A stretch of 63,328 bases of DNA, taken from the IMG/VR virus record IMGVR_UViG_3300027815_000237, positions 1 through 63,328 of that record, one strand, 5' to 3'. The stretch comes from a virus (taxonomy: Duplodnaviria; Caudoviricetes). The position numbers and the translations under genes are program-made. A model generated the notes under the pieces. It was not told where the DNA came from and did not search any database. It saw only the letters and a list, made by a program, of their open reading frames with translations. How positions within the stretch are numbered: the stretch's first letter is position 1; each line of letters opens with the position of its first letter. Shown here one piece after another: positions 13,796 through 42,583 of this stretch.

Positions 13796-13819
13796 ATAAT
13801 TTAAATCTGAATACGCAAC

Positions 13820-24087: not shown

Positions 24088-25443
24088 ATGAACGCATTCA
24101 CAGTCGATTATAGCGCCGATCGTGAGTTCGTAACGATCGTGGAAACGGAGATGCGCGAGCAGATGTACTACGGCTCACGCTTCTCGGAGTTGATCGGGAT
24201 GAACTTTGCAAAAACGATGGGGCGCGATAAGGAAGTGAAATCTCTCGGACCGGGACAGACGGAAACCTTGGTTGGCGCTCCTATTGAGAGCGTCAAGGGA
24301 TTCAAGGACCGATCGGGCCTATTCATGGAGATTCCCTTCATCAGCCGGCTCAAGGAGCTGCCGGGCGCATTAGGAAACGCTCCTTTGAAGGGGACGGAAG
24401 AGACGGATCAATACTCCTTCTTGACCGTTCCGATTAACCGTTGGCGGAAATCGTATGCCCCGCCGATGGGGATGCAACGCCAGGCAACGAAATCCTGGAG
24501 GGCGTACCTCTGGGAAAGAGCGAGACCAAAGCTCACGCAGTACATTCAGGATTTCATGCCATCGAACTACCTGAGTGCCCTGCATTTCGGCGCCTCGCGT
24601 GAGATCGTCGCGCCCACAACGGCGCAAGGTCGCGGTATCACGCCCATCAGCCATCCCAATATGTTCGGGGCGGGTGTGGGGCAGGTCAGCTACTCCGGTG
24701 GACGTCCGGGATCGGCTGGTTACGAAACCTCGGTCGAGACCATGATAAACACGGTCAATTCGACCGCTACACAGTTCAAGATGAGTGTTGGGGCTCTGAG
24801 AGATTTCATCCAAAGCCTTCCGGAGCTCAAACTCAAGCCGCTCTCAAGCAAAAAGGGGAGACCACTTTACCCCGTGTTCATGCTGCCTACAGTATTCACG
24901 CAAATCCGAGCAAGCGATGACTACAAGGCATACGTGCAATCTCTGCGCGGAATGGTCATGGACGAACATCCTCTCGCTCATCTGGGAGAGGCGATCATCG
25001 ATGGCGCCCTGATCATCACCGACATCACGCTCTGGTACGCATATAGCGCGGCCATGGGAGTTGATTCGGGTATTGCAGCGGCGGCACCAGAGTACGGCCC
25101 GCGTCCGACAGCGGCAGAACGAGTGCGAGGATTCAAGACAGGCAACACCATTGACCGTCTGGACAATGGTAATGTCGCTTGCACCTTCGCCTTGGGAGAG
25201 ACAGCTCTTCTGATGGCGACAGGCGAAGAGGTTACATTCCACGAGCAGATCGAGGATTACGACGGCGTTCAGGGCACCGGGATTGATACAATCAAGTCGG
25301 TTGTCCGAGGCGAGACGTTCAATAAACTCGGTCTCATTACGCTCCCTGATGGTACGGTATTGGCAAAGGACGCATTCCACCAGAATACGGGCTCTGCCAT
25401 GATGTTGTCGTACTCTCCGCGATCGAGAAGTTTTGGAGCGTAA
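24088..25443 (+). CDS. Major capsid protein
   Basis: 451 aa after scaffold, AAGGA RBS, YPVFMLP / GEAIIDGALI pattern compatible with HK97 fold. Confidence 0.75.
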   Translation: MNAFTVDYSADREFVTIVETEMREQMYYGSRFSELIGMNFAKTMGRDKEVKSLGPGQTETLVGAPIESVKGFKDRSGLFMEIPFISRLKELPGALGNAPLKGTEETDQYSFLTVPINRWRKSYAPPMGMQRQATKSWRAYLWERARPKLTQYIQDFMPSNYLSALHFGASREIVAPTTAQGRGITPISHPNMFGAGVGQVSYSGGRPGSAGYETSVETMINTVNSTATQFKMSVGALRDFIQSLPELKLKPLSSKKGRPLYPVFMLPTVFTQIRASDDYKAYVQSLRGMVMDEHPLAHLGEAIIDGALIITDITLWYAYSAAMGVDSGIAAAAPEYGPRPTAAERVRGFKTGNTIDRLDNGNVACTFALGETALLMATGEEVTFHEQIEDYDGVQGTGIDTIKSVVRGETFNKLGLITLPDGTVLAKDAFHQNTGSAMMLSYSPRSRSFGA

Positions 25444-25444
25444 G

Positions 25445-25906
25445 ATGAAGACGACACTTCTCGTACTCGCGCTGTTGTGCATTTCAGTGACAATGCACGC
25501 TCAGGTGGTCCGTGTCTCGACTGACATCATTGTTGGGAAACACATTGCGAATTCCGCAGGTGATTCCGTTGTCAATATTGATGTCCCTTACAACGGCACG
25601 GCAATCTCAGGAATAACCGGGCTCTTTCCCGACAGTATCAGGTTGGTGTTCTCAGCGACCGATACCATCTCGGGAGTCCTGTGGTTCAAAGGCGCCTACG
25701 GTACTGGCACAACTTATTCACGTGACAGCATTGGGGTTGTCTTGACTACTGGCTCGGTAAGCACATCGGGGTACACGATCTCAGTAGACACTTGGAAGTA
25801 CAAAAGTCTACTGGGGGTAGTGTATCTCGCAAAATCAAGCGGTAATGGTGTTCTCGCTGCTCGCAAGGTCTGGGTTCGAGTAGAACGATTCTTCACATCC
25901 AGATAG
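25445..25906 (+). CDS. Beta-rich protein with Sec signal peptide, in capsid-decoration position
   Basis: MKTTLLVLALLCISVTMHA|Q; starts right after the MCP stop (TAAGATG). Confidence 0.8.
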   Translation: MKTTLLVLALLCISVTMHAQVVRVSTDIIVGKHIANSAGDSVVNIDVPYNGTAISGITGLFPDSIRLVFSATDTISGVLWFKGAYGTGTTYSRDSIGVVLTTGSVSTSGYTISVDTWKYKSLLGVVYLAKSSGNGVLAARKVWVRVERFFTSR

Positions 25907-25921
25907 AAAGGAGAGAAAACC

Positions 25922-26188
25922 ATGAGCGGAAAACAGATTCTAAATCGGGTTGTCGCTGCGATTGATGTCGCATTGACTTTGGGATACCCTGCCGGAGCAA
26001 CAATTGAGATCGTGGAAGGACCAACGGGGATGTTTCACGACATCAATTACGCCGGGGCGCCGTCGACGTCGTTCCCCAATGCGCCTAATGCAAGCCGTCT
26101 CTACGATAACACGAACGCCGATCTTTGGATTAAGACAGGCGATGTGGGATCGGGGATCGACGGGACCTGGACCAAGGCCAGTCCGTAA
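25922..26188 (+). CDS. Small decoration/fibre-type protein
   Basis: GAP...SRLYDNTNADLWIKTG..GTW motif typical of phage fibre modules. Confidence 0.6.
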   Translation: MSGKQILNRVVAAIDVALTLGYPAGATIEIVEGPTGMFHDINYAGAPSTSFPNAPNASRLYDNTNADLWIKTGDVGSGIDGTWTKASP

Positions 26189-26204
26189 CCATCAATCACA
26201 ATTC

Positions 26205-26235
26205 AATACCCGCCCTCGAGATGGGGGCGGGTATT
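26205..26235 (+). terminator. Strong hairpin (terminator or processing site)
   Basis: AATACCCGCCC/GGGCGGGTATT 11-bp stem; weak U tract. Confidence 0.6.
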
Positions 26236-26255
26236 ATATCGAGAAAGGTAACAAC

Positions 26256-26648
26256 ATGAAACTCAGAGTAAATGTGCATGTCCCGATTCCTCACAAGGTA
26301 TTGATCGGCGGGGTGGAAGTCTCTTTCGCGCCGGATGCCGAAGTGCCTGACGATTGGGGAACGGCGATGCTGAAGGATTTTCCGAATATCTACATCCAAG
26401 CAAAGGGCGACGCGGATTTGACGAAGTACCGCACGCGGGAGACATCATTGATCGCAGGCTTTCATGAGAAGTTCGATGCTCTGACGGAGGAGGAAAGAGT
26501 GAAGACACTGAAGTATATGGATGATCTTCAAGCCAAGCGCGTCAACGATGCGAAAGTGAAACAAGCGAAGGAAGAGGACGACAAGCGGAAAGCCTTGAGA
26601 GCAGAGGAAGAAGCTCAAGCCCGTGCCAAAAAGGAAGGCAGGGTGTAG
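26256..26648 (+). CDS. Hypothetical head-region protein
   Basis: AAAGG RBS before ATG 26256; charged helical C-terminus. Confidence 0.65.
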   Translation: MKLRVNVHVPIPHKVLIGGVEVSFAPDAEVPDDWGTAMLKDFPNIYIQAKGDADLTKYRTRETSLIAGFHEKFDALTEEERVKTLKYMDDLQAKRVNDAKVKQAKEEDDKRKALRAEEEAQARAKKEGRV

Positions 26649-26650
26649 CA

Positions 26651-27025
26651 ATGAGACGAGTAATCATGGGGCTGATGTTATTCGTCGGTCTCTTTGTATC
26701 TGCCTCCGCTCAACTGACATCACCCGCATTAACGAGCATCATCCGGGAGGACTCAGCCACAGCCACGACAGTATTCTTGGCCGACAGTGTCTATCTCGGG
26801 TACCCGGACTATGAAAAATGGATACAAGTGGTGAATGACGGGAGTGTTGTTCTCTACTTCGCGCTGGGTAATGACACCGCTGCCGGAAAGTTCATAAGAG
26901 TCAAGAACGGCACAACAGAGAACGTGTTCACAATTTCACGTCTTTCACGCAACGTGAAATTTATTCGTTCGAGAGCTGTCTCCAGCACGTGTATAAGACG
27001 TGTGCGCTGGGGAATAGCCCGATAA
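26651..27025 (+). CDS. Beta-sandwich protein with Sec signal peptide
   Basis: MRRVIMGLMLFVGLFVSASA|Q; IQVVNDGSVVLYFALG typical of small phage jelly-roll proteins. Confidence 0.8.
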   Translation: MRRVIMGLMLFVGLFVSASAQLTSPALTSIIREDSATATTVFLADSVYLGYPDYEKWIQVVNDGSVVLYFALGNDTAAGKFIRVKNGTTENVFTISRLSRNVKFIRSRAVSSTCIRRVRWGIAR

Positions 27026-27047
27026 CATTCATTCAAAGGAGAGTAAG

Positions 27048-27632
27048 ATGGACGAGAAATCTCAGGCAACTGCGAACTCGCAGGCGGCATTGATCAGATC
27101 AAGCGGGATGTTGGAATTGGCCAATGCTCACGGCTTTTATGAAATCGAGTGTTTCGATCGGTTCGGAAATCTGAAGTGGAAGGACATCGCGGTCAACGTG
27201 GTTACGACCGTTGGCAAAAATCTTGCCCTCGACACGTACCTTGCAGGAGCGGGCTACACCGTGACAGGTCCGTTTATCGGACTTATCAGTTCAGTGAGCT
27301 ATACGACCGGTCCTGCGGCTGGCGACACTATGTCTGCTCATGGAGGCTGGACAGAAGCAGGGGGAACCAACGCTCCAACATACACCGCGCCAAGAAAGAC
27401 AGCAGCATGGAGCGCGGCTTCCGGAGGTTCGAAAGCATTATCAGCAGCCGCTTCCTACGGAATCTTGACAACAGGGACGGTCAAGGGATGCTTCATGGTC
27501 TACGGAACAGGAGCCGTTTCGACGATCGACAACACGAGCGGGACATTATATAGCGCCGGTCTTTTCACTGGCGGTGACAAGGCGGTGGTTAATACCGACA
27601 CACTGAATGTCTCATATACTGCCTCACTTTGA
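27048..27632 (+). CDS. Virion structural protein (fibre-base type)
   Basis: GNLKW..NVVTTVGKN N-terminus and DTLNVSY C-terminus seen in phage fibre-associated proteins. Confidence 0.65.
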   Translation: MDEKSQATANSQAALIRSSGMLELANAHGFYEIECFDRFGNLKWKDIAVNVVTTVGKNLALDTYLAGAGYTVTGPFIGLISSVSYTTGPAAGDTMSAHGGWTEAGGTNAPTYTAPRKTAAWSAASGGSKALSAAASYGILTTGTVKGCFMVYGTGAVSTIDNTSGTLYSAGLFTGGDKAVVNTDTLNVSYTASL

Positions 27633-27640
27633 GGTGTAAT

Positions 27641-27856
27641 ATGAACGGGAACGGAGTAAAGCCGACAGTACAAGTCACGTTGACCTACGGATTGGCCGAT
27701 GGGAAACTGACGATCTCTGGACCTATCCATGATCGGGGATTGATGAAGTTGATCCTAACGGAGGCAATGGATTTCATCCGAGAGATGCACCCGCTCAAAC
27801 CAAAGGAACAACTCGTTACGCCAGTGAATATCATTGATCTGAACAAGAAGGAGTAG
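27641..27856 (+). CDS. Small hypothetical protein
   Basis: GAGG RBS; in-operon. Confidence 0.55.
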   Translation: MNGNGVKPTVQVTLTYGLADGKLTISGPIHDRGLMKLILTEAMDFIREMHPLKPKEQLVTPVNIIDLNKKE

Positions 27857-27858
27857 CT

Positions 27859-28581
27859 ATGGACACTATGACAATGAGAGATGCGGGTATCACGCTTGAT
27901 GATCTCATTGAACGTGAGCAGCAGTTTGTTCCGTTCGGACCGTTCTGGAGATCGAAGTACCTGGAGAAGGCACCGGAGAGCGTCAAGCAGCATTTCCGCA
28001 TGGCGAAGAAATATCCGCATATCATGGGGGGGCGACAGGGCTACGATTCGATGGATGTCAACGACTGTCCGCCAGCTTCATTTACGGCGGTCACGGCCTC
28101 GGCGACAGAAACAAACCTCTGGACTCCGGCGATTTGGACTCCGATCCCCGCGAATGATATGAGAGCGGGGAAACTCTACAAGGTTTGCTTCGGCGGGATA
28201 TTCACATCGACGGCTACGCAAGGTGTTCTTACATGGACTCCGCGCTTCGGGCAAAGTAGTACACCGGCAAGCAACATCACACTTGGAGCCTCAAATGCGA
28301 CAGCACCGGCCGCGTCACTTACGGGTTCGGCTTGGTACGGTGAATTTACACTTGGGATTCGTTCGCTTGGCGTTGCGGCATCTGGTGCTACCGGGACTGG
28401 GAACGGTTTTGTTATTGTCCAAGGCGCGGCAGCGGCGACGGGAATCATGTACGTCATGGGCGGAACCGTGGCAACGACGCTCGATAATACGACCGCACAG
28501 GGATTGATCGTTTCCTTGACCATTTCAGTCGCCTCGCAATCTTACACTTGTCAATGGGTTGCACAGCGCTCGTTCAACTGA
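27859..28581 (+). CDS. Beta-rich structural protein, paralog A
   Basis: Charged 58-aa leader ending PHIMGG, then Thr/Ala/Gly-rich beta domain. Confidence 0.75.
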   Translation: MDTMTMRDAGITLDDLIEREQQFVPFGPFWRSKYLEKAPESVKQHFRMAKKYPHIMGGRQGYDSMDVNDCPPASFTAVTASATETNLWTPAIWTPIPANDMRAGKLYKVCFGGIFTSTATQGVLTWTPRFGQSSTPASNITLGASNATAPAASLTGSAWYGEFTLGIRSLGVAASGATGTGNGFVIVQGAAAATGIMYVMGGTVATTLDNTTAQGLIVSLTISVASQSYTCQWVAQRSFN

Positions 28582-28583
28582 AC

Positions 28584-29285
28584 ATGTTGACGATTTACGA
28601 CATGGTGCGGAAAGAAGAAGAATGTGGGGTTTTCTGGGGTCCATTCCGGAGGGAAATGGAATTGAAGAGATTACCGCGCCGAATTCGTCGCCAAATTCGT
28701 AATGATGGCATCGTCGGCTATCGTGTGAGTAAGGAAACGACCATGACAACCGAGAATCCTCCCGCGAACACCGCATCATTCAGCACGAGTGCTATTGAAA
28801 ACAGACTCTACTCGCAGTGGATTTGGGGGAGTATTCCTATCAACGATCCAGAGCCAGGGACTTACTACGAGATAAGTTGTGGGGGAGTCTATGGCACGAG
28901 GGCGACCAGTGTTGGTACAATTACTATCCGGGCACGGTGGGGTGCAATACAAAATGTGGGCAGTAATACGCTTCTGGCGACCTCAAACGCACTAACGCCA
29001 GCAGCGAGCCTATCTGCCGTACCCTGGATTGCGCAAATTCGTACAACCATCCGACGGGTTGATATTGAGACTGCAGCCGGGACCGGTCTTTGTTCTACCG
29101 ATGGGTGGTTGTTTAGATATGACGGTTCATCGGTAACAGGAGCAATGCACGAGATCGAGTCTTCCACCGACGACGCGATCGACACAACTATCGCAGGCGG
29201 ACTTCTCTTGACTTGGCAATTCTCAAGTTCAAACGTTGCGAACACCTGTACCTGTCAGTGGCTATGCTTTAGGCAGGGCAACTGA
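28584..29285 (+). CDS. Beta-rich structural protein, paralog B
   Basis: Aligns by eye with 27859 along its full length (GPF, PPA, IP.ND, PAASL, TCQW). Confidence 0.75.
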   Translation: MLTIYDMVRKEEECGVFWGPFRREMELKRLPRRIRRQIRNDGIVGYRVSKETTMTTENPPANTASFSTSAIENRLYSQWIWGSIPINDPEPGTYYEISCGGVYGTRATSVGTITIRARWGAIQNVGSNTLLATSNALTPAASLSAVPWIAQIRTTIRRVDIETAAGTGLCSTDGWLFRYDGSSVTGAMHEIESSTDDAIDTTIAGGLLLTWQFSSSNVANTCTCQWLCFRQGN

Positions 29286-31096
29286 TGAGACGCATTTTAT
29301 TCATACCTGGCAAGGCGGGCGATCTGAAAGAGCCGTGGAGAATTTACAAACCTCTCATTCTACCTGCCACATATACCGATAGCATCGCCGAATCGACTTC
29401 GGCCACCGAGACCAGCGATGCCACGGGGACTTACGCTGCCGCTACCACAGAAGCCGCGAGCGCAACTGAAGCAAACAGCGTTCTTCTCATTACTCTCTCT
29501 GCTATAACAGAAGCTACTTCCGCATCAGAATCAACTGATGCCACGAGAATTTATGTTGCCGATATCACCGAAGCGACATCGGCAACGGAGACGGAGGATA
29601 GGACTCTCACTCTTGCCGCCGCGATAACAGAAGCCCTCAGTTCTTCAGAAGCGGAGAGCGTGACCCTTGTTACCCTTTCAAGTATCACTGAATCTGCGAG
29701 TGCTACAGAAACGCCTACTGATCTATTGACGACACTGGCATCTGTAAGCGAGGCTTCGTCGAGTGCTGAGTCGGTCAATGCTACAAATGTTCTTGTGGCA
29801 GACATTACGGAAGCGAGCTCATCAACAGAAGTAGAGAGTGCGCTTCTAATCGCGGTGGCTGAGAGGACAGAAGCGGTATCGGCATCGGAGACAGAAGACG
29901 CGCTTCTCATACAAAGTGCAAGCATTTCAGAATCAGTAAGCGCCGCTGAAACAAGTGATGAGACGCTCGTTACTCTCGCTGATCAAGTAGAAGCAATTTC
30001 CGCAGCGGAGGCTGATTCAGCCGTATTGGATATTGCGGCGGCAATCACCGAATCTGGGACTGGCGCAGAAAGCGAAAGTGCCGCTCTCATCGTGGCCGTC
30101 TCGATAAGCGAATCAGTTTCAGCCACAGATGTTGAGGACGGTCTAAGGATTGTTGATAACCAGATAGCAGAATCAATTACGGCGAACGAGAGTTCGGATG
30201 GCATCGCCATCCAAAATGCGGAGCTGATCGAAACTGCGTCAGTGACAGAATCCACAAATGGTCTGGTAATAGTGGTAGCGTCAGTTACCGAATCGGCCAA
30301 TAGCACAGAGGTAGAGGATGGCAGCCGAGTCATGGAGCTCGCCATAACTGAATCTGCGACCGCGGGCGACGTATCGAATGGTGATGTCGGAGTAATCACA
30401 GCTGATGTCACAGAATCGGCCACGGCGACAGATAGTCCGGATGCCCTCAGGATTGTTGACAACGCCACAGCGGAATCGGCCAGTGCGATTGATAGCTCGA
30501 ATGGGCTCGCTATCCGGGATGTGGCGATCACTGAAAGCACTTCATCAAACGATGCCACCAATGGTCTGATTGTAGCGGTAGCGACCATCACCGAATCAGG
30601 TAGTGCTACGGAAAGCACGGATGGCGCCGTCCCGAGCAATGTTGTGGAGGCCGTGAGCGCCGCTGAGAGCGTGTCTGCTCTGGTTATTCGGTTCGCGTCA
30701 ATAACAGAATCATCCACTGCTATAAGCACTCAGGGCTCTGCGGGTAATATTTTCCATGCGGATCAATTGGAAGTAGCAGCGCTTTTGGATGTATGCAATG
30801 TGATCATTGCCTTTGAGCGAGCACTCGAGGCCGTTGTCTTAAAGGACTTGGCCGGCATTCTTGCGAATGTGGGCATTCAAAGTGAGATTGCGGCGGACGT
30901 CACTCAGGAAGAGATCGAGTTGTATGTATACTCCGACATTATCCTTCCGAGTTTAGACACCGTATCCGTGAGAATAATGATTGATGAGCCGACTATTTGG
31001 GCTATGATTGAAGAGCGGGTGATGCAGGGAAATCTGCCGCACGCGCCAATAAAACAAGTTGTCAAACCTTCAATTGACGAATTGATCCTGCTATGA
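29285..31096 (+). CDS. Acidic fibre-like protein with about 23 x 20-aa repeats
   Basis: Repeat (I/V)TE(S/A)xSAxExxxxxxxxxx. Confidence 0.8.
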   Translation: MRRILFIPGKAGDLKEPWRIYKPLILPATYTDSIAESTSATETSDATGTYAAATTEAASATEANSVLLITLSAITEATSASESTDATRIYVADITEATSATETEDRTLTLAAAITEALSSSEAESVTLVTLSSITESASATETPTDLLTTLASVSEASSSAESVNATNVLVADITEASSSTEVESALLIAVAERTEAVSASETEDALLIQSASISESVSAAETSDETLVTLADQVEAISAAEADSAVLDIAAAITESGTGAESESAALIVAVSISESVSATDVEDGLRIVDNQIAESITANESSDGIAIQNAELIETASVTESTNGLVIVVASVTESANSTEVEDGSRVMELAITESATAGDVSNGDVGVITADVTESATATDSPDALRIVDNATAESASAIDSSNGLAIRDVAITESTSSNDATNGLIVAVATITESGSATESTDGAVPSNVVEAVSAAESVSALVIRFASITESSTAISTQGSAGNIFHADQLEVAALLDVCNVIIAFERALEAVVLKDLAGILANVGIQSEIAADVTQEEIELYVYSDIILPSLDTVSVRIMIDEPTIWAMIEERVMQGNLPHAPIKQVVKPSIDELILL

Positions 31097-31416
31097 AACT
31101 TACCCTTGGTCTGAACGACGTCGGGATCCCCGTTCGATTGACGGTCGTTGATTCTTTGCAGCAGCCCATAAACATCTCGGCTGCGACAACGAAGGAATAC
31201 AGGTTTCTCAAACCAAGCGGGGCGAAGATAGCAGTGGCCGCAACCTTCATCACGAATGGTGTCGACGGAAAGCTCACAGCGAAAACGCCGTCTGGCCTTT
31301 GCGACCAAGAAGGGGATTTCAAGGTCCAGGTACACGTAGTTATTCCCCCAGATGAAGACTGGGGAACAACAGCTATAGACTTTGATGTCGTCGATTTCTT
31401 AACGAAGAAGGTGTAA
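31093..31416 (+). CDS. BppU-like Ig-fold adaptor
   Basis: NDVG..RLTVVD..PINIS..FLKPSG..DGKL..DQEG.F.VQ pattern. Confidence 0.6.
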   Translation: MKLTLGLNDVGIPVRLTVVDSLQQPINISAATTKEYRFLKPSGAKIAVAATFITNGVDGKLTAKTPSGLCDQEGDFKVQVHVVIPPDEDWGTTAIDFDVVDFLTKKV

Positions 31417-31417
31417 A

Positions 31418-31852
31418 ATGATGCTCTCTGATATTCCGATTTCCGATTTCATTAAAGAGCTTGACGAAGATGAGGATGCGAAAGCCCTGGCAACCTCAGA
31501 AGAGATAGAAGTCATCAACGCATCGGGGCAGGAAGCGTGTACGATCTATTTCAATAACAAAAGGACAAACTGGAAGAAGACGAACCTTGCATCTCCAGTC
31601 GCTGGGATTTCAGTCGGTCAAGATGAACGAAGGGGATTCGGCACAGCATCGATCAATGGTACATTCATACCATTCTCGTCGCTTTATTCGTTGCCTTACT
31701 TACTCTCTGTCCAGGGTTACAAGAATGGGCAAGAATATGGGGTTGGATTCTTTGATCAAACACTGTTGGACACTCGGGCAACGAACGGATTCTATGCCTA
31801 TGCTGCTGAAGACGGTGTCACGATTGAATATCGCGCATCTAAACCGTTGTAG
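31418..31852 (+). CDS. Hypothetical structural protein
   Basis: In-operon ORF. Confidence 0.6.
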   Translation: MMLSDIPISDFIKELDEDEDAKALATSEEIEVINASGQEACTIYFNNKRTNWKKTNLASPVAGISVGQDERRGFGTASINGTFIPFSSLYSLPYLLSVQGYKNGQEYGVGFFDQTLLDTRATNGFYAYAAEDGVTIEYRASKPL

Positions 31853-31864
31853 GAGACAGATCAA

Positions 31865-34105
31865 ATGAGAAAAACAATCCAATTCCTAATGTTGATATTT
31901 TTATTTGGATGTCCGGTATTCGCTCAACTCAATCCGACATACAAAACGGTAACAGCGACAAAATCTCTCATCAGCGACACTTCCAAAGCCATAACGATGT
32001 ATCAGAAGTTCGCATCAAAGACCGTGAATCTTGAAACCTTTGACTTTAAGAAAACCGGAGTATTCCGTAACTGGGTCGTATTCCAAGATACGGTCACTCT
32101 TGGGAATGTGGTTGATATTTATCTCACGCGGGCTGAAGTTCATAAGAATCTATACCTCTATAATCCACTGACGGATCTTGCATCGCCCTCGTTGATATTT
32201 AAGCAGCCAAACAGTCTAACAACTGGAACTGACAGTGTTAGTATCTCAATGGTCAATTCGCCTTTGGGTGTAAAAGCGCTGAACATGAGTCATCCTATCC
32301 AATTCACCGAATTTTCAAGTAGCGGTCTAACTGGTCTGGCGCGTTTACTAACGATGAATGGCGATACCATCATCACAAAAGGTCAGACTAATAAGATTTC
32401 CAGAATATATCCCGTTGACGCAACAAGTGGGCAGGTCTTAAAATGGACGGGTTCGGTCTGGGCCCCTGGAACGGATGTGACCGGCGGAGGTGGTGGAGGC
32501 GCGGCATTCATTCGCATCAGAAATGAGAGTGGAAGTTTCTCCAATTATCCAGATAGTTCAATTCGTGTGGATTCCAATTTCGCATTGAGTGCGAATGAAC
32601 CATATGAGGTGACAATAAGACCAATCCAACCAATCACAACGCTTTCAAGTCCGACATTTGTAAATGGCATTTACACAGGCACGCTGATCTCCGGGGCGCA
32701 TAGGGCAACCGGATTGAGTGTGTTTGATAGTCTTCAGATTACGGGTTCTCCGGCTGCTGTTGGGACAGCACCACTCTATGTTGATAACAACAGTGGAAGT
32801 GCGAACGGTTCAATAGCAATCTTCAAGGGTCAGGGTACGAAATGGTTTGATGTCAGAGCAAACGGTAGGGTAAGGATCGGAGATCCAACATCCCTTGATT
32901 CGCAGTTGACGGTCAAACTGGGCGGGCATGTCGAACGTGGGTTCTTAGTAGATGGTGCGACAACATTAACTGGGATAGTATCAACTGGGAATTTGACATC
33001 AACGGGATCTGTAACGGCACAAAGTTTTGGTCTACATAATCTATCTTTTTCTGGCACGACAAATTTCACCCAGACCTCAATCGGCACAATGACGATTTCA
33101 AATACTGGCGGAATTTACCTTAACACACCTTTGATAGGATTTCAGAACGGGTCTTTTATTCAAACCGATGTCCAGGATGTTTTGACGGGGAATAGAACAA
33201 TCCATAGACCAGATAACTCTGGAGTCTATGCAGTCGGTGCGATCTCGCCACTGTTCTTGTCATCAACCGGTATCCTGAGCGTAACCGGTGGTCTCATAAC
33301 CTCCTTAAGCGGACTTACGGCATCAGTTCAGACATTCTCAGTTGGTTCTTCTGGAACAACGCCGAACATAGTTTCGTCTGTGGCTAATCATCAATTCAAT
33401 TTCCCGCTTGCAGCTGCTGGTGTTACGAGTGGCACTATTAACAATGTCGCGCAAACGATTACTGGCCCCAAGACAATGAGTTCTCCGTTCACAACTAAGG
33501 CGCGAAATCTCGCGCCACTGGTGTATACCGACCCCGTATTGACTGTGGCGATACTTGATACATCCGCGGAATTTATCGTATTAGATCCATCAGTCCAGGC
33601 TGTTAATCAGACCGTGCTTTTACCCTCCGTCTCAGGTCGAGCTGGTAGAACATATATATTCTCTCGTTACGAGGGATCAGCAACATCTTTGACTTTGACA
33701 ATCGTGCCAAACGGATTGGAGAAAATTGATGGTAAGACGTCGATTGTGCTCACGGACAATTTTGATTATGTACGCCTAATTACCGATGGGAATGTTGGCA
33801 TTGGATGGAGGATCGTCGGCGCTCAATTGGACGGGGCGTCGTATTCCGTAACAGACAGTTTGAAGCTGACGGCTGCCGTAGCCTATATCTCCGCAGCATC
33901 GGACAGTGTTTTCTTTTCAATTCCGGGTTTCGATTCAACGAAAGGTTGGGTAGGCGGAGCGACATACACTGATGCGAGAATGAGTCAACTTCCGTTGCCG
34001 ACTCCACAACTCATCAAGCGTCCGGGTGGTATCTCGATTAGAGCCAACTACGACTGGACGATTGACAATGTTGAGATCAGTTTTCTTTACAAATTGAAGA
34101 AATAA
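31865..34105 (+). CDS. Tail-fibre-like protein with Sec signal peptide
   Basis: MRKTIQFLMLIFLFGCPVFA|Q; fibre motifs ATSGQVLKWTGSVWAPG, QTITGPKT, VLLPS..GRTY..TIVPNGLEKIDG. Confidence 0.8.
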   Translation: MRKTIQFLMLIFLFGCPVFAQLNPTYKTVTATKSLISDTSKAITMYQKFASKTVNLETFDFKKTGVFRNWVVFQDTVTLGNVVDIYLTRAEVHKNLYLYNPLTDLASPSLIFKQPNSLTTGTDSVSISMVNSPLGVKALNMSHPIQFTEFSSSGLTGLARLLTMNGDTIITKGQTNKISRIYPVDATSGQVLKWTGSVWAPGTDVTGGGGGGAAFIRIRNESGSFSNYPDSSIRVDSNFALSANEPYEVTIRPIQPITTLSSPTFVNGIYTGTLISGAHRATGLSVFDSLQITGSPAAVGTAPLYVDNNSGSANGSIAIFKGQGTKWFDVRANGRVRIGDPTSLDSQLTVKLGGHVERGFLVDGATTLTGIVSTGNLTSTGSVTAQSFGLHNLSFSGTTNFTQTSIGTMTISNTGGIYLNTPLIGFQNGSFIQTDVQDVLTGNRTIHRPDNSGVYAVGAISPLFLSSTGILSVTGGLITSLSGLTASVQTFSVGSSGTTPNIVSSVANHQFNFPLAAAGVTSGTINNVAQTITGPKTMSSPFTTKARNLAPLVYTDPVLTVAILDTSAEFIVLDPSVQAVNQTVLLPSVSGRAGRTYIFSRYEGSATSLTLTIVPNGLEKIDGKTSIVLTDNFDYVRLITDGNVGIGWRIVGAQLDGASYSVTDSLKLTAAVAYISAASDSVFFSIPGFDSTKGWVGGATYTDARMSQLPLPTPQLIKRPGGISIRANYDWTIDNVEISFLYKLKK

Positions 34106-34115
34106 TGGAGAGACT

Positions 34116-37100
34116 ATGAGACGACTAATTTTGATACTGTTATTCCTTTCGAGTTCTTTTGCAGCGGCACAGACGCTACAAAGCACCGATAGCTTTGACA
34201 CAACCGTGACCGCCAACATCAACGGAAGAAGAAAATGGCTGGGTGCAGGCGGTACTGGCCTTTATATCCAAACGAATGGCGATAGTACGATCATGGCCTT
34301 CTCCGCGACCGCAGGAACCTACGCTGCCGCCGCGTGGGATTCCCTCATAACCGGGCCCTCTATGTTTCAAATGAGGGTTGCCAGTTTGGGCAGCATAACA
34401 AGCGGTCCAGCCTTCTATTTTTATTCCTATGTGCCCGGATTTGTATTCACCAACTGGACTGGTTATCGTATCCAATGGATCCACGATGGCCCGCCGGATC
34501 ATCTTCAGATAGAACGCGTAACCGGCGGGACCACAAGGGTCATTCTTGGCACAATATCAAGATCACTTGCTGTCAATGATACAATTCGGATGTACGAGCA
34601 TGGTGCTAACTGGCGTTCTGTTACGTTGGTTCGAGCCGGGGTTACACTCGATTCACTTGCGGTGAGAGATACCATTTACAACTATAACGTGACGAATGGA
34701 CGTTGGGGGATACGTGGTTGGTGGTACAGCACCGGAGTACAGAGAATGGATGACATGGCAATTTACGGCTTACCACTGCCTCCGACTCGTGACACGGTGC
34801 CGCCCGTGATCGTCACGCTACAAGAACAACCAACAAACCCGGATTCGACAAAGACTATTCTTATCAATCTCCGAGCTACGGATGTCTATGGGCTTGATAG
34901 TCTCTATATCCGCTTTGGCACAGCGGAAACAGGAACTATGGGTGACAGTCTTGTGCTCAAATGCGGCACGACAAAAGATACGACGCTAACACTCACTCTG
35001 ACTCCAAAGCGCACAGGCCTTTACATTTATCAAGCGCGAGTCAGAGATGATACTGGAAATGTCACGACTTCCTCGACTCTCCAGTTTCAAGTGTTCCCAA
35101 AAATCTTGACGATTCACAGATTGTACGATGACTTTGATACCCTGGCAACACCAACGGTCTCTGGTGTGAGAAAGAAATACGTCAATCTTACTAATCAAAG
35201 TGGTTCCAGTGCCACCATGCAGATCAATGCTGATTCCACAATATCTCCGCGAAACCTTTCCGCTGGAGTATTCCCTGGAGCCGTAGCAATAGATTCGTTG
35301 CTCTCGGGCAGAGTTGTAGTCGGATTCATACTCAAACAAAAAGGAGACCTCCAGGACAATTCCGCTTATATCTATCTCAGGATGAGTGGAAAAGACTTTG
35401 CGACCAGCACCGGGTATCGTCTCAAGATATTGAATCAACCAGTGGGTACGGGGACTGGGATAGATATTCTTGAGATTGACAATGTGACTCCACCGAATAA
35501 CAGTCTTTTGGTGTCCAAACAAATCGAATTTGCAAATGGGGATACGATCTATTTTAAGACTTATACCGGTACCAATGCGTTGGTTGGACTTGTGAGAGGC
35601 ACACGGAGCGGAGTCCCGTTCGCCGATTCTATCACCGCGATTGGCAACTCCTATACTCCAGCATCATGGTATGCATGGATACGGGCTTTTGTCGAACCGA
35701 CCACAACGAAGATCGACAATTTGTACCTTGACACGCTCGCCGGTCCACCTCCACCGCCAGTTACGACAAGGGATACTATTCCTCCAGTGTTTCTCTCGAA
35801 GGGCCTCAGCGCGAGTCTTATTGATACAAGCCTTAAGTTTAACGTCTCGGCAAGAATTATAGACGATACGGTCAGTTATTTCTATTCTCATATTCCTTCC
35901 CATGGTTTGGATTCGATCTGGATGGGCATATACACTGTTCCGACGAATACTTTGTACGAACAGAAGGGTTGGAAGATCAGCAATGTTTATGCGACAAGTT
36001 TCGACACGACGGTCTATTCTGATTCCGTGAAGAGACCAAGCGGTATTTACAAGGTTCGTTTCTGGACAAGAGATGATTCCGGGAACGTGGCAACAGATTC
36101 GATGCAATTCAATGTTGCGCTTGGCGGCGCAAGATGGTTGACGACCTATTACAATACATGGCAGATGCAGACGGGTGGCCCGTACTATTCTCTACAACCC
36201 TGGAAAATCAATTGGGCTGGCATTACCCATGTCATAGAAGGCGGGAATCCAAACATTCAGGCGACCTATCCATTCCTCACACTCTTCGCTGGAGGGGTGG
36301 CAGGTGATTCATTGGAATGGGCCTATGGTTCACAGAGGAATCCAGCTATTGCTATGAGGGACAGCCTTATCAAGTATGCACACTTGCAGGGAACAAAAGT
36401 TCTTCAACAGATCGTCGCTATTGGTTCTGGTGGTACAGCATTGAACACGATTACCTTAGACAGTGCTACCACCGAATCCATGTGTCGAAGAATCGCGCAG
36501 TTCGTTCAACTTCACGGTTTTGACGGTGTAGATATAAACTGGGAGACAAGCCTCGGGACAAAAACTCAAACATCGTTACTGTTCCGTCGGATGAGAGCGA
36601 ATCTTGATGCTATCACAACGGGGAGTGGTGGACGCGCAACAATTCATATATCCCCCTTGTCCGGTGGATGGGGAAGTTATGATGCCGCAGTCGCCAATGT
36701 GACGTTGGATCAGATTGATCCGCAACTTTACGATATGTCGGCAGCGTGGGGTGGAAGCTATAACGTCAACTGGTTTTTGAACCCACTTCATAAGGGAACC
36801 ACCTATGCGGTCTTCAATGGAGAAGCATACGACACTCGTGGGCCATTGCAATGGGTGGCGAATGGCTTCAAGAAAAACATCATGGGTTCACTCATGGCTG
36901 TGATGGGTAGAAACTTTGTGGGCTCCGATGTTCTCTTTGGAGGTCCGTATGCCGGATGGGGTCAGGACATGGTACATTTTCAGAATGTTAGCATTCTAAA
37001 GGGTCAAGGTTACGCTGAGACCTATGACACTGCAAGGCACGCCCACACGATTCATGGGACAGCCACGGCGAATTATAGTAATCGTAACATGACACTAACC

Positions 37101-39527
37101 GCTGGTGATAAGTTTTGGTTCACCTTTCAAGACCCGCGAGACATTCCAGATCAGGTCCAATGGATTAAAGATAATGGGTTCGGTGGGATCGGTCTCTATG
37201 ATATGACGGCGGACATGGTGAACACAGCTCCATACGGTCAGACCAATCCAATCATCAATGCCTTTATCAATGCTCTTGGAAATAGTCTCATCATACAGGC
37301 ACCGGCGACCCCTGTTCCAAACACCATTGCGGGCGATCCAAATAATCAGCCGAAGACGAACATACAACTCTCGTGGTCGGAGCCATCCGGGGCAACCGGC
37401 TATCATTTCACTCTGAGTACGGACAGTTTATTCCTTGCGCCAAATATTATTGATGAACAGAATTATCCGACGGCATCTATTTTTGTCGGTAGCAATCCAT
37501 ATCCGTCCCTGGGTTACTCGACACGCTACTATTGGAGAGTTGCTGCCGTTAATATAGCGGGGTCGAGCGGATTCTCCTCAGTGCAGACTTTCAAAATCCA
37601 GGCAGATCCGAATGTAGCAATCTTCGTTCCGCCAATTCCGGTCTTGGTGACCCCAGCCAATAATGCGACTAACCAACAGACAACATTGATCTTAACTGTT
37701 TCCAAGGCGGGGGCCGGGGATACGGTCACTTCCTTCAACATCAAAATGGCAAGTGATACCAATTTTGTCAGCGTGATCTTGGATGATAGTCTGATCTCTT
37801 TGCCAGTGGGACAGACTTCTGCCTCGCGTACTGTTACGAGTCTTTCACAAGGGACCGCTTATTATTGGAAAGCGCGAGCCAGAAATGTGGTCGGATACAG
37901 TGCGTTCACTGCCTTCCGCAAATTTACCACAGCGGTGGCGGCACAAATTGTAGCGTTTAAGATAGGTAACGAATTGGTATTCGATCCAACACAACCTGGG
38001 TTCGCTCTTCGAACGCCGGTGCGTCGTTCTCTCACGGATGTTGATCCATCGCTCTGGACACTGCCGGATTCCAATGAAGTTGGCTGGTACGGTCGCGGTT
38101 TCATTCTGAGAGACGGAAGAAAATTTGATCTGACTTCCGCCGTCTCTGGGATGAATTACCAGCAGATCATCGCTGAACTGAATAAGACGAACCCGACATG
38201 GACAAACTACAATGTCTTTGCGGGTGGTCTCTCAATCAGTTATGCCGGTAATACGCTTGCCACCTTTGATGGGAATGGTGCCACGCTAACAAATCTCAGT
38301 GTCAATGCTCCGGCAAGATTCAACGGCTTGACGACCTTGGCAGGCGGTGTTGTCCTCGACAGTATCATTGCCTCCATTCCTTCGGTGGGGATCATCCTAC
38401 GGAGCAATCAATTATATTTTTCCGACGGCGGCAATAAAGCTCTGTCTATGATAAATGCCGTGACGACACCCGGAGATACCCTAACCATTATAGGACAACG
38501 TGGTGGTTTTAATCAGCGCGGTGGGAATTTGGTACTCTGGGGCGGGAGTGGTTTTAACTCCGGCCAGGGGGGTGATCTTATCCTCCGAGGTGGCAAGGAT
38601 GGTGGATTGAATAGCGGATGGGGTAAAACTATCATTCAAGGTACGTTCCAGTTCATCAACGGCAATCAGGGCGCTGGTAAGTATCTCACATCAGATGCCT
38701 CCGGCAATATTGATTTCACGAGTACATCTGGTTCGCTCGCCGATTCGACGCGGAAAGTCCCATCCCTGAAAGACTTTTACAGATTTGCCGAGGATTGGAA
38801 TGTAACGGGAACTGGGGGTTTTAGCGTTGCTGGTACAAATTCCAACACGTTCGACAATAGATGGGTTGCCGTTCTCGGCGGAGCAGCTCACAGTGGGAAT
38901 ATCATCACCGTTGACATAGATACCGTGGGAGTTGTTGATAGCAGCGAATGTTCAATCGTCAAATTTACGATGGGCGGCGTAGACTCTACAATGGGTACGG
39001 GCGTAGTGGCAACCCTGATCCCATCCGGACGGGGAAGTACAACAAAAAATAGTTTGTATCTGAGGAAAATGGGTCTCACAATGAACGTCAAGTTCAGTAT
39101 GCCGGCTACTACGGCTGGTATGGATTCAGATGGAGTGATTTGGGGATTCACCGGAAGTACAACGGACGGCGAAGATTATAGCAATACAAACAGTGCGGGA
39201 GTTTACTTGCAATATGCGAACAAACTTGCCGGTGGTTCACAAGACAGTATCTATGCTGTTGTGGCGAGCGGAAGCGCAAAGACCAAGAAGGGAACGATAA
39301 AGCCAACAACCTCTCAGACTATCACTTCATCTATTTGGATCAGCGCCACTGGTTTTAACTTTAAAGTCAACTCAACGATAATTACAATACCATGGTCGGA
39401 TGCCAACGTACCAAGTACCACTCAACGAGCGACTCCCATACTTTCAACGATCCAATATGGGCAAGCAACGTCCGGAAAAGTCTTTAGACATTACTACTAC
39501 GAGTATTATTTTCCAACTTCACGATGA
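34116..39527 (+). CDS. 1803-aa secreted-type protein: 2x(beta-sandwich+Ig), GH18-like barrel, 2xFN3, fibre-like C-terminus
   Basis: MRRLILILLFLSSSFAAA|Q; FDGVDINWE; YYWRVAAVN and YYWKARARN FN3 motifs; NQGAGKYLTSDASG fibre motif. Confidence 0.85.
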   Translation: MRRLILILLFLSSSFAAAQTLQSTDSFDTTVTANINGRRKWLGAGGTGLYIQTNGDSTIMAFSATAGTYAAAAWDSLITGPSMFQMRVASLGSITSGPAFYFYSYVPGFVFTNWTGYRIQWIHDGPPDHLQIERVTGGTTRVILGTISRSLAVNDTIRMYEHGANWRSVTLVRAGVTLDSLAVRDTIYNYNVTNGRWGIRGWWYSTGVQRMDDMAIYGLPLPPTRDTVPPVIVTLQEQPTNPDSTKTILINLRATDVYGLDSLYIRFGTAETGTMGDSLVLKCGTTKDTTLTLTLTPKRTGLYIYQARVRDDTGNVTTSSTLQFQVFPKILTIHRLYDDFDTLATPTVSGVRKKYVNLTNQSGSSATMQINADSTISPRNLSAGVFPGAVAIDSLLSGRVVVGFILKQKGDLQDNSAYIYLRMSGKDFATSTGYRLKILNQPVGTGTGIDILEIDNVTPPNNSLLVSKQIEFANGDTIYFKTYTGTNALVGLVRGTRSGVPFADSITAIGNSYTPASWYAWIRAFVEPTTTKIDNLYLDTLAGPPPPPVTTRDTIPPVFLSKGLSASLIDTSLKFNVSARIIDDTVSYFYSHIPSHGLDSIWMGIYTVPTNTLYEQKGWKISNVYATSFDTTVYSDSVKRPSGIYKVRFWTRDDSGNVATDSMQFNVALGGARWLTTYYNTWQMQTGGPYYSLQPWKINWAGITHVIEGGNPNIQATYPFLTLFAGGVAGDSLEWAYGSQRNPAIAMRDSLIKYAHLQGTKVLQQIVAIGSGGTALNTITLDSATTESMCRRIAQFVQLHGFDGVDINWETSLGTKTQTSLLFRRMRANLDAITTGSGGRATIHISPLSGGWGSYDAAVANVTLDQIDPQLYDMSAAWGGSYNVNWFLNPLHKGTTYAVFNGEAYDTRGPLQWVANGFKKNIMGSLMAVMGRNFVGSDVLFGGPYAGWGQDMVHFQNVSILKGQGYAETYDTARHAHTIHGTATANYSNRNMTLTAGDKFWFTFQDPRDIPDQVQWIKDNGFGGIGLYDMTADMVNTAPYGQTNPIINAFINALGNSLIIQAPATPVPNTIAGDPNNQPKTNIQLSWSEPSGATGYHFTLSTDSLFLAPNIIDEQNYPTASIFVGSNPYPSLGYSTRYYWRVAAVNIAGSSGFSSVQTFKIQADPNVAIFVPPIPVLVTPANNATNQQTTLILTVSKAGAGDTVTSFNIKMASDTNFVSVILDDSLISLPVGQTSASRTVTSLSQGTAYYWKARARNVVGYSAFTAFRKFTTAVAAQIVAFKIGNELVFDPTQPGFALRTPVRRSLTDVDPSLWTLPDSNEVGWYGRGFILRDGRKFDLTSAVSGMNYQQIIAELNKTNPTWTNYNVFAGGLSISYAGNTLATFDGNGATLTNLSVNAPARFNGLTTLAGGVVLDSIIASIPSVGIILRSNQLYFSDGGNKALSMINAVTTPGDTLTIIGQRGGFNQRGGNLVLWGGSGFNSGQGGDLILRGGKDGGLNSGWGKTIIQGTFQFINGNQGAGKYLTSDASGNIDFTSTSGSLADSTRKVPSLKDFYRFAEDWNVTGTGGFSVAGTNSNTFDNRWVAVLGGAAHSGNIITVDIDTVGVVDSSECSIVKFTMGGVDSTMGTGVVATLIPSGRGSTTKNSLYLRKMGLTMNVKFSMPATTAGMDSDGVIWGFTGSTTDGEDYSNTNSAGVYLQYANKLAGGSQDSIYAVVASGSAKTKKGTIKPTTSQTITSSIWISATGFNFKVNSTIITIPWSDANVPSTTQRATPILSTIQYGQATSGKVFRHYYYEYYFPTSR

Positions 39528-39988: not shown

Positions 39989-39996
39989 GATCAGAC

Positions 39997-40239: not shown

Positions 40240-40256
40240 TCATGTAGATAGATTCC

Positions 40257-41101: not shown

Positions 41102-41722
41102 ATGGGAAGAACGGACATTATTATCAGCAAGCTCGTTCGGCGGCTCAAGGGACTCAAAGTTGACCCGATGCCTCGGACGGATGAACTGTTGTCACTGCTT
41201 AGTGATGCTCAGCTTGAGGTGGCCCAACGTGGACTTGCAATAAAAGCGGAGATCACATTTTACACCGAAGCCGCAGAGGATGTTTATGACCTTGGTACAA
41301 AGATTTTTCGGATTCGTAAACTCATTGAGCCAACGACATGGACAACTCCCGTAGAAATCATCAACAACGAAGAGAGATGGAGTGAGATTGTACGTTCACA
41401 GTCCTTGGGTGAGGTGACGCCGCAACCACTTTATGCAACGGTCTGGAATGGCCGCCTGAAGTTCTGGCCAACTCCAACTGTAACGGGAGAAGAGATTGAA
41501 GTTTTTCTCTATCTTTTGCCTTCGAGATTGATTGATGAGGGAACAGACCCGGAGGTTGATCTTACGTGGGACAACTGCCTTGAGTATGGAGTCTTAGATG
41601 ATCTCATGGGTGGAGATTGGACGGTGAAATACGAAAATGAGTTATCACGGCTCGGACAGCAGAACATAAGAGAAGCACTTGCTCCGACGCGCATCAAACA
41701 CTGGTCAGAAATCGGGTTTTAA
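41102..41722 (+). CDS. Phage adaptor / tail tubular protein A-like
   Basis: ELLSLLSDAQ, YDL, LKFWPTP, DPEVD..WDNCLEYG pattern. Confidence 0.7.
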   Translation: MGRTDIIISKLVRRLKGLKVDPMPRTDELLSLLSDAQLEVAQRGLAIKAEITFYTEAAEDVYDLGTKIFRIRKLIEPTTWTTPVEIINNEERWSEIVRSQSLGEVTPQPLYATVWNGRLKFWPTPTVTGEEIEVFLYLLPSRLIDEGTDPEVDLTWDNCLEYGVLDDLMGGDWTVKYENELSRLGQQNIREALAPTRIKHWSEIGF

Positions 41723-42583
41723 ATGGCCACTACACGGTTCAACAATAACATCCTTCTTGCGGCACGCCGATTACAGGACGTGCGTACTGATCCATCACCT
41801 ACGGGTGACAGTGGACGACGGCACAAGAGCGCCCTGTTACAGGATTACCAGAACAGAGCCATCCGAGAGATCATTTTCGATGCGTATAAGAGTCTCGGAC
41901 GGGGCTTCGGAAGCATGATCCCTGAGTACGTGAGGACGAGCGGGATATTGACTGTCTCAGGGGCACAGGCGACACGTCCGGCGGACTCTTGGATCGTAAC
42001 GGAGTTGATCGACAGTGCGAAAACGCTGAAATTCGTGCCTATTTCGGATGATGAAGTTTTTGACGTGACGGTTGGGAAGAGAACATTGATTGTCCCGAGT
42101 AATAGTCGCCCGTGCTTCTATCAGGAAGGGGATAAAGTTGTTATTCTGCCTTCATCGACATCAATCACCGGCGTAATAGCCAGATATATCCGGGTTCATC
42201 AGGATATCGTCGTCAATACATCGTTGTCAACGGATGGCAATTACCTTCTCACTGCTCCAGCCGCGTGGACCGCTGCTACACGCCAATTGACAGCGACAAT
42301 GGGCTTTCCTTTCGCTATTGCGGATATCAATAAGCTGATTATGTTCAAAAATGCCGGGATTGTCTATTCAGGACGAATAGAGGCATGGATATCAGCGGTC
42401 ATCGTGACAGTTATTGGTGACGGCCTGCCCACAGGGAACCTTGCAGCGGTTGACACAGTGCTTGTTGGGGACAATTCACCCGATGCGTCGGATCTCATTT
42501 TGAAAGCCACATGGGATTCTGTTATTGTCGACAAGATGGTGCAATATGCCACGCTTGATGCCGTGAGGAATAAGGATGCCTGA
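41723..42583 (+). CDS. Second adaptor-like protein
   Basis: LQDYQNRA, PSNSRP, DLIL..WDSVIVD pattern. Confidence 0.55.
   Translation: MATTRFNNNILLAARRLQDVRTDPSPTGDSGRRHKSALLQDYQNRAIREIIFDAYKSLGRGFGSMIPEYVRTSGILTVSGAQATRPADSWIVTELIDSAKTLKFVPISDDEVFDVTVGKRTLIVPSNSRPCFYQEGDKVVILPSSTSITGVIARYIRVHQDIVVNTSLSTDGNYLLTAPAAWTAATRQLTATMGFPFAIADINKLIMFKNAGIVYSGRIEAWISAVIVTVIGDGLPTGNLAAVDTVLVGDNSPDASDLILKATWDSVIVDKMVQYATLDAVRNKDA

Follow-up and report, generated by a model that had tools for sequence, protein, structure and literature searches.

Predicted signal peptides and Bacteroidota-type O-glycosylation sequons in late proteins of a temperate podophage

This study concerns a 63,328-b stretch of DNA (the window), which is the entire IMG/VR provirus record IMGVR_UViG_3300027815_000237, with an estimated completeness of 76%. 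The element is a temperate podophage, with a P22-type portal, an SU10-type adaptor, an integrase and an S24 repressor. Four genes inside its morphogenesis operon, which start at positions 25445, 26651, 31865 and 34116 and encode the proteins P0001, P0002, P0003 and P0004, combine a predicted Sec signal peptide, a glutamine directly after the predicted cleavage site (the “Q-rule”) and an excess of the O-glycosylation sequon D-(S/T)-(A/I/L/V/M/T). Both the Q-rule and this sequon are described for Bacteroidota in excerpts of two studies (PMC10653852, PMC8550257). Judged from these features of sequence, the four proteins are very probably exported and shaped by host glycosylation, since the sequon can sensibly be under selection only in proteins that enter the periplasm of a host with Bacteroidota O-glycosylation. 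A first-pass annotation of the window had proposed that they are exported virion proteins glycosylated by the host; the signal peptides, the +1 Gln and the conserved, Asp-specific sequons uphold the export and glycosylation part of that proposal, and their location in the virion is what we infer. Our overall reading, to which we assign a probability of about 0.45, is that they are Sec-exported late podophage proteins, tuned to the Bacteroidota envelope, which dock after lysis.

Signal peptides and sequons in the window

Signal peptides were called by a heuristic of our own, which requires a basic n-region, an uncharged hydrophobic core and a small residue at position −1. All four proteins conformed to it, in line with the Sec signal peptides that the first-pass annotation had read at these genes, and in all four a Gln directly follows the predicted cleavage site; the preceding N-termini are MKTTLLVLALLCISVTMHA in P0001 (ending HA-Q), MRRVIMGLMLFVGLFVSASA in P0002 (ending SA-Q), MRKTIQFLMLIFLFGCPVFA in P0003 (ending FA-Q) and MRRLILILLFLSSSFAAA in P0004 (ending AA-Q). 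When the open reading frames (ORFs) of the window were pooled with those of three related phages (G001–G003, described below), [AGSC]Q followed the hydrophobic core in 23 of 37 signal-peptide-like ORFs versus 15 of 139 others, and the 14 signal-peptide-like ORFs without this motif were mostly holin-like membrane proteins or wrong starts. A Shine-Dalgarno-like motif was found 5′ of each of the four signal-peptide ATG codons, and such cores lie upstream of 18 of 50 window genes versus 13% at random positions. The public gene call P0005 starts P0003 eight residues later, at Met9; the only homologue of P0003, P0006 (41% identity), retains the full signal peptide and the Gln.

The sequon counts made by hand in the first pass were reproduced exactly. 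The motif accommodates 4 of 7 Asp in P0001 (shuffle expectation 0.8, p 0.005), 3 of 5 in P0002 (expected 0.4, p 0.004), 7 of 34 in P0003 (expected 3.3, p 0.043) and 36 of 100 in P0004 (expected 8.0 ± 2.6, p ≤ 0.0005), in which 23 of the 43 Asp within residues 1–700 lie in sequons. Pooled, the four proteins contain 50 sequons versus 12.4 ± 3.3 in 1000 shuffles (z 11.5), so that the excess holds after correction for composition, and the other 46 window ORFs are at expectation (44 versus 46.1). No further ORF among the 50 tested was enriched; a 4728-amino-acid (aa) protein, for example, has 10 of 272 Asp in sequons, with 10.6 expected. Among the 20 motifs of the form X-[ST]-[AILVMT], only X = D was enriched in the four proteins, the next being L at z 2.3, and Ser or Thr follows 65 of their 146 Asp versus 88 of 942 elsewhere. 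This Asp-only excess in the shuffle control is decisive against an effect of Ser/Thr or beta-strand composition. The low counts reported earlier for the non-exported major capsid protein and a 985-aa tail protein were borne out as well (Table 1). Pfam scans of 54 window ORFs detected no glycosyltransferase family, in agreement with the earlier remark that the phage encodes no recognisable enzyme of this kind.

The Bacteroides phage crAss001 provided a control. Its virion proteins gp21–26 and gp32, with the annotated head fibre, the tailspike and fibre proteins (gp21–26) and the capsid protein, have neither a signal peptide nor a sequon excess (0–5 sites versus 0.2–3.6 expected). The ‘lysis regulatory protein’ gp27 (L027, 25093–25695) combines an N-terminal membrane/signal segment with sequons at 4 of its 8 Asp (expected 0.3, p 0.002), which suggests by sequence that in this cultured phage of Bacteroides a lysis protein may be an O-glycosylation substrate. 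Taken together, the crAss001 fibres and gp27 indicate that sequon excess tracks export and not fibre folds, and the absence of signal peptides from the crAss001 fibres indicates that export of fibre-like proteins is not a general trait of phages of Bacteroidota.

Conservation in related phages

Among 1.84 billion proteins, 121 representatives of the capsid protein reach E ≤ 0.001. A search with its single sequence returned nothing in IMG/VR or among isolated phages, and a profile of 13 capsid proteins recovered 12 IMG/VR loci at 27–48% identity. In 9 of these 12 loci, the capsid gene is immediately followed by an ORF for a signal-peptide protein of ~150–190 aa; two of the remaining loci break off no more than about 600 nt from the capsid gene, and the third, L010, has an unrelated 198-aa ORF at this site. 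This ORF (P0130) was tried as a P0001 homologue lacking a signal peptide, an idea that did not hold (hhalign probability 0.1). In L010 the capsid gene is followed by no ORF that has a signal peptide or is rich in sequons. L010 forms a sister group with L011 and L012 (capsid proteins 33–34% identical); these three may represent a branch on a different host phylum and lend themselves to comparison.

Homology beyond position was confirmed for the P0001 and P0002 families. Searching with a profile of mature P0001 recovered 14 proteins, on contigs of up to about 47 kb; among the 11 members fetched, 10 begin with a signal peptide ending in A before the Gln and one is an N-terminal fragment. In the alignment of all 14, every member keeps a P-D-S and, further on, a D (D-[ST]-[IV]), and a third site, D-S, is almost invariant; all of these are sequon positions. 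P0002 homologues with 29–43% identity occur in L003, L004, L006 and L008, and D-S and D-T-x-A-G are invariant in 5/5 members. Between P0003 and P0006, 4 of 7 sequon positions align, and 6 of 27 non-sequon Asp are conserved. The N- and C-termini of P0004 match a 1449-aa signal-peptide protein of G002; preferential sharing of sequons by these two proteins was considered and rejected (10 of 36 sequons versus 15 of 64 non-sequon Asp conserved).

Three relatives are full or nearly so: terminal repeats are present in G001 and G003, and the estimated completeness of G002 is 95%. Their common plan runs from the capsid gene through a signal-peptide ORF of ~155 aa, two small ORFs, a signal-peptide ORF of ~114 aa and an ORF of ~140 aa to one to three large signal-peptide proteins, followed by an ORF of ~160 aa, the adaptor, an ORF of ~290 aa and a 960–990-aa tail protein. 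G002 and G003 have a further large signal-peptide protein after the tail protein, with the signal peptide present only if an alternative start is used. In the structural regions of G001–G003, every ORF longer than ~400 aa has a signal peptide except the terminase, portal, capsid, 960–990-aa tail and giant proteins; for two of these ORFs it is visible only with an alternative start. The exported large proteins show mosaic similarity to one another, and their Asp in sequons amount to 27/98, 21/74, 13/52, 18/100, 5/13 and 7/18. Altogether, the 14 signal-peptide ORFs of these phages contain 110 sequons versus 37.2 ± 6.1 expected (z 11.9), with Asp alone enriched, and the 112 other ORFs contain 110 versus 91.4 expected (z 2.0). 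A signal peptide is thus kept at the site after the capsid gene in 9 of 12 loci, and signal peptides together with sequons are kept in G001–G003, with invariant sequon columns in the small-protein families, and the synteny marks the four genes of the window as late-operon genes of phages, not ordinary host genes. As a separate observation, a 309-aa ORF of L008, the locus of G003 (13602–14531), combines a lipoprotein-type signal (…AWGSSC) with sequons at 7 of its 18 Asp, of which two fall within a repeated Y-x-D-S-A-S-L-A-G-L unit; it has no homologue in the window, and its syntenic counterpart, by position, is a 390-aa ORF in G002.

Folds, domains and gene surroundings

The two small proteins were modelled from shallow alignments. 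Mature P0001 (134 aa) was predicted by AlphaFold2 as an 8-strand jelly-roll with a predicted local distance difference test (pLDDT) value of 71; YomS matched this model at Z 8.7 in an exhaustive structural scan, and the matches returned by Foldseek were all generic, to viral jelly-rolls, Ena pili and lectins (template modelling scores 0.3–0.58). P0002 yielded a low-confidence jelly-roll (pLDDT 61), to which Ena1B is a weak match (Z 9.5). Complex prediction for the capsid protein and mature P0001 gave a score of 0.00 in a run without controls, which is evidence neither way.

The first-pass annotation had credited two of the four genes with phage fibre motifs, which was borne out in part. P0003 does share a short repeat with P0007, a Peptidase_S74 protein; the Ig_J and fn3 matches of P0004 fall below the Pfam cut-offs, as do all fibre-type matches (Ig_J 25.8 versus 27, Adeno_shaft 28.1 versus 30, PTR 24.4 versus 27). 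P0007, which has a signal peptide, was itself rejected as a further instance of the phenomenon, with one sequon versus 5.0 expected. The exported fibre-like proteins had no PHROG match; in isolated phages P0003 had no match and P0004 matched only through its fn3 domains, and viral fibre-like clusters among the results of a language-model (Atlas) search give a weak hint. A lipobox-like LFGC of P0003 is not kept in P0006, and none of the four proteins has a conserved lipobox.

In P0004, two sequon-dense N-terminal modules are followed by a GH18 domain, fn3/Ig-like domains and a fibre-like C-terminus. The GH18 match scores 56.7 bits against a Pfam cut-off of 29.6, and chitinase and chitinase-like chains match at E values down to 1e-12. 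The catalytic motif of GH18 is D-x-x-D-x-D-x-E; P0004 has D-G-V-D-I-N-W-E, in which Asn occupies the site of the Asp that lies two residues ahead of the catalytic Glu. GH18 also occurs in the large signal-peptide proteins of L004 and L008, where D-x-E is intact (LDIE, FDFE), and the Glu is invariant. By sequence, the copy in the window may be a lectin-like or altered-mechanism variant.

Nearly all window genes are on the + strand. At the left end lie the integrase and the S24 repressor; a UvrD helicase, a DNA methylase, a small terminase subunit and the P22-type portal (by Pfam) were also recognised, and a DUF5675 protein is encoded near the right end. The position of the SU10-type adaptor shows that the exported genes sit between head and tail genes (Table 1). 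The 144-aa protein upstream of P0003 has 31% identity to a 151-aa ORF that precedes a 1545-aa signal-peptide protein in G001. The name ‘nozzle’ for the 985-aa protein came from its position and from the first-pass annotation, and no family match supports it. The 150-aa protein next to the DUF5675 protein probably belongs to the lysis region and offers an internal contrast without sequons.

Table 1. Features of the window discussed in the text
Feature	Position	Strand	Details
Major capsid protein	24088..25443	+	phrog_334; no signal peptide; 1/20 Asp in sequon; anchor for the search for relatives
P0001, 153 aa	25445..25906	+	starts 1 nt past the stop of the capsid gene; signal peptide residues 1–19, predicted cleavage between A19 and Q20
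P0002, 124 aa, small all-beta	26651..27025	+	signal peptide residues 1–20, predicted cleavage between A20 and Q21
Conserved 144-aa protein	31418..31852	+	no signal peptide; directly upstream of the exported fibre-like genes
P0003, 746 aa, fibre-like	31865..34105	+	signal peptide residues 1–20, predicted cleavage between A20 and Q21; Gly run
P0004, 1803 aa	34116..39527	+	signal peptide residues 1–18, predicted cleavage between A18 and Q19
GH18 domain of P0004, residues 760–1033	36393..37214	+	Pfam
Head-to-tail adaptor	41102..41722	+	PF24175 SU10_adaptor, E 4e-10, above cut-off
985-aa conserved tail protein	42576..45533	+	no signal peptide; 3/79 Asp in sequons; homologues in G001–G003 33–40% identical
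150-aa protein	61652..62104	+	signal-peptide-like N-terminus (...SVLA before Q); adjoins DUF5675 protein; 0/5 Asp in sequons

Several neighbouring ORFs deserve mention in their own right. The 4728-aa ORF (47422–61608) contains ResIII/SNF2-type helicase motifs at residues ~1720–2120 and a RadC-like JAB domain at ~2290–2371; counterparts of 2807 aa in G001 and 4275 aa in G003 occupy the same place after the tail genes, and the product may be a giant ejected or internal protein. Adjacent ORFs of 240 aa (27859–28581) and 245 aa (28548–29285), which have no family match, are paralogues (29% identity over 236 residues, E 2e-31). A 214-aa ORF with a TTG start (26004–26648) probably begins too early: relatives carry two small ORFs here (84–113 and 132–163 aa), the first of which, following the P0001 family gene, is matched by an 88-aa ATG ORF at 25922–26188. 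Directly after the 1803-aa gene lie three small ORFs (39524–40616) without a family match, of which 39524–39988 and 40257–40616 have strong membrane segments; these could be holin-like or could handle the exported proteins.

Virion location, alternative roles and significance

Tentatively, we picture a clade of Bacteroidota tailed phages with a two-compartment virion, in which the head and tail are built in the cytoplasm while the fibres or receptor-binding proteins, perhaps along with the decoration proteins, pass through Sec, gain pyroglutamate and O-glycan and join at lysis. The exported genes would be transcribed together with the virion genes and their products would cross the inner membrane; signal peptidase I would cut before the Gln, which a host cyclase can turn into pyroglutamate, and the general O-glycosylation system of the host would modify the D-(S/T)-(A/I/L/V/M/T) sites. 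Pfam and NCBIfam scans found no C-terminal sorting domain of the type IX secretion system (T9SS; Por_Secre_tail, TIGR04183 type) in P0001–P0004 or in the large proteins of the relatives. Together with the absence of a conserved lipobox, this means that nothing detected sends the proteins beyond the periplasm, where they would wait. Once holin and endolysin had merged the compartments, P0003, P0004 and their counterparts would dock onto finished particles as fibres or receptor-binding proteins. The P22 tailspike and T4 fibres attach in vitro, and joining a completed particle at a late stage is mechanistically feasible. The two small jelly-roll proteins would be accessory or decoration subunits, or lysis helpers resembling XepA of the Bacillus subtilis element PBSX. 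Incorporation of the exported proteins into virions is favoured by the lack of any other fibre candidate in G001–G003, by the mosaic similarity of the large proteins to one another, by the conserved late-operon position of the genes and by their tight coupling to neighbouring genes. We infer export itself, glycosylation itself, the host phylum and, above all, virion attachment after the membrane breach; that the four proteins are acquired by virions is in our judgement somewhat short of an even chance.

Several points weigh against the docking of these proteins onto virions after lysis. Tailed-phage virions are normally built in the cytoplasm, and docking after the breach would be a new step. 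Nothing that we computed places P0001–P0004 in the particle, and the argument by elimination would break down if the receptor were bound by the 985-aa tail protein or by the product of a small ORF. The GH18 domain, together with the TIG and ‘choice-of-anchor’ Q/Z domains additionally present in the large signal-peptide proteins of the relatives, is typical of secreted bacterial enzymes and adhesins. The signal peptides were called by our heuristic alone. As for the host, Shine-Dalgarno-like cores are more frequent in the window than Bacteroidia typically show, which hints at a class of Bacteroidota other than Bacteroidia, and scans of genome contigs with capsid and portal profiles, which turned up no relative, and of metagenome contigs with the integrase found no provirus with host flanks, the integrase scan giving one distant match (29% identity). 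The window DNA was found only in two groundwater metagenome runs, which may be its source. The +1 Gln and the selection for sequons point to Bacteroidota as the probable host phylum. Finally, the best structural match of the P0001 model, at the top of 48,161 chains, is the N-domain of XepA (6i56_D; Z 10.6, root-mean-square deviation 2.8, 110 residues), and the XepA cluster is a weak lead for P0001 in the independent Atlas search. In the structural comparison that the first pass had called for, the P0001 jelly-roll thus had XepA as its top match and only generic likeness to decoration folds.

This match bears directly on the most serious alternative, namely that the proteins are exported and glycosylated and never enter the virion, acting as late periplasmic helpers in the manner of XepA in PBSX. 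They might condition or degrade the envelope at lysis, with GH18 or lectin-like domains stripping or masking glycan receptors on the dying cell and its debris and so freeing progeny. We regard this as a real possibility, slightly less likely than docking onto virions. According to excerpts of the XepA literature, XepA is encoded in a late operon, exported during PBSX development and absent from mature particles (PMC6834076). The conservation of GH18 in large proteins of the window, L004 and L008, with D-x-E intact in the two relatives, and the presence of domains of the secreted-protein type agree with a helper role, which would also remove the topological problem. Such a role would leave these phages without a recognisable fibre or receptor-binding protein except the 960–990-aa tail protein, and it demands four to six exported helpers, some of 1000–1800 aa, whose genes are set among those for head and tail in an order that is conserved. 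The likeness to XepA, moreover, concerns a common jelly-roll and one of the two XepA domains and comes without a sequence signal: P0001 had no Pfam match at E ≤ 0.01 to the XepA family (PF27453), and its profile found no XepA among PDB sequences at E ≤ 10.

The first-pass annotation had kept open that the four are lysogen surface proteins. On this view the genes would serve lysogenic conversion or superinfection exclusion and would remodel or shield the surface of the lysogen. The element is temperate, as its integrase and S24 repressor indicate, and Q-rule signal-peptide genes in Porphyromonas gingivalis prophages are so interpreted in excerpts of one study (PMC10367356). The exported genes are, however, translationally coupled to the capsid and tail genes, with gaps of 1–12 nt or overlaps to their neighbours; promoter-like sites (20 versus 22.2 ± 5.1 in shuffles, in a scan that does not cover Bacteroidota-type promoters) and terminator-like sites (18 versus 16.8 ± 3.8) are not in excess; and the position is conserved down to 27% capsid identity, including contigs with terminal repeats. 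Coupling, the lack of promoter or terminator excess and conserved gene order together argue against lysogenic conversion and for late co-expression with the virion genes, which is likely. Since no surface-sorting signal was found either (neither a T9SS C-terminal domain nor a conserved lipobox in P0001–P0004), we consider this alternative improbable. More improbable still is that the proteins are not exported. The hydrophobic N-termini would then be misplaced starts or would anchor the proteins in a membrane, and the motif excess would follow from a fibre composition rich in beta-strands. The Met9 start of the public gene call for P0003 and the use of a heuristic instead of a dedicated predictor speak for this reading; the shuffles controlled for composition and left Asp alone enriched, crAss001 fibres have no excess, signal peptide and Gln are kept in all 14 aligned members of the P0001 family and in P0006, and Shine-Dalgarno-like motifs precede the signal-peptide starts.

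Sec-exported docking proteins of this kind would resemble several known systems in part. Like the Bacteroidota O-glycosylation and Q-rule substrates, the four have a Sec signal peptide, a +1 Gln, an Asp-specific sequon excess and conserved sites; unlike them, they are encoded by a phage inside a morphogenesis operon, include its only fibre-like proteins and are known from sequence alone. XepA (PDB 6i56) shares the late operon and the export, as described in part of its literature, and has an N-domain jelly-roll that is the best fold match of P0001, whereas it is two-domain, comes from a Gram-positive host, has no sequence similarity and no known sequons, and P0001 is single-domain and follows the capsid gene. 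Jelly-roll cement and decoration proteins (BPP-1 Bbp16, KHP40 cement) are likewise products of a small gene adjoining the capsid gene; these cement proteins, the P22 tailspike and T4 fibres differ in being cytoplasmic and without a signal peptide, and the fold matches obtained here are generic (Z about 7). Glycosylated mycobacteriophages also carry glycans on virion surface proteins, which are added in the cytoplasm by their own glycosyltransferases; no glycosyltransferase was detected here by Pfam, and the route would be Sec plus periplasmic enzymes of the host. In the P. gingivalis prophages, Q-rule signal-peptide genes of unknown function have been viewed as an adaptation to host secretion (Matrishin et al. 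2023, PMC10367356). These too are phage signal peptides exposing a Gln; the excerpts of that study mention neither glycosylation sequons nor fibre or decoration positions, and the string ‘glycosyl’ is absent from its text. Searches of full texts brought up no paper that connects O-glycosylation in Bacteroidota or Sec export with virion proteins of tailed phages, nor any account of Sec-exported proteins rich in sequons within the structural modules of such phages.

If the proteins are virion parts, they would reveal a new assembly route for tailed phages and the first case found of a phage borrowing the periplasmic general glycosylation of its host for its own surface. The result would be a tailed phage coated with host glycans, a prokaryotic analogue of viral glycoproteins that mature in the endoplasmic reticulum, with a bearing on virion stability, on receptor recognition and on immune or lectin recognition of Bacteroidota phages. 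It would also affect the annotation of structural genes, since signal peptides are usually taken as a sign of a non-structural protein. If they are not virion parts, they would constitute a conserved and unusually large set of late periplasmic glycoproteins in podophages, including GH18 enzymes, and would extend the poorly understood class to which XepA belongs. Either way, the combination of signal peptide, +1 Gln and sequon excess offers a simple marker for surveying Bacteroidota phages, and one that points to the host phylum of an uncultured virus.

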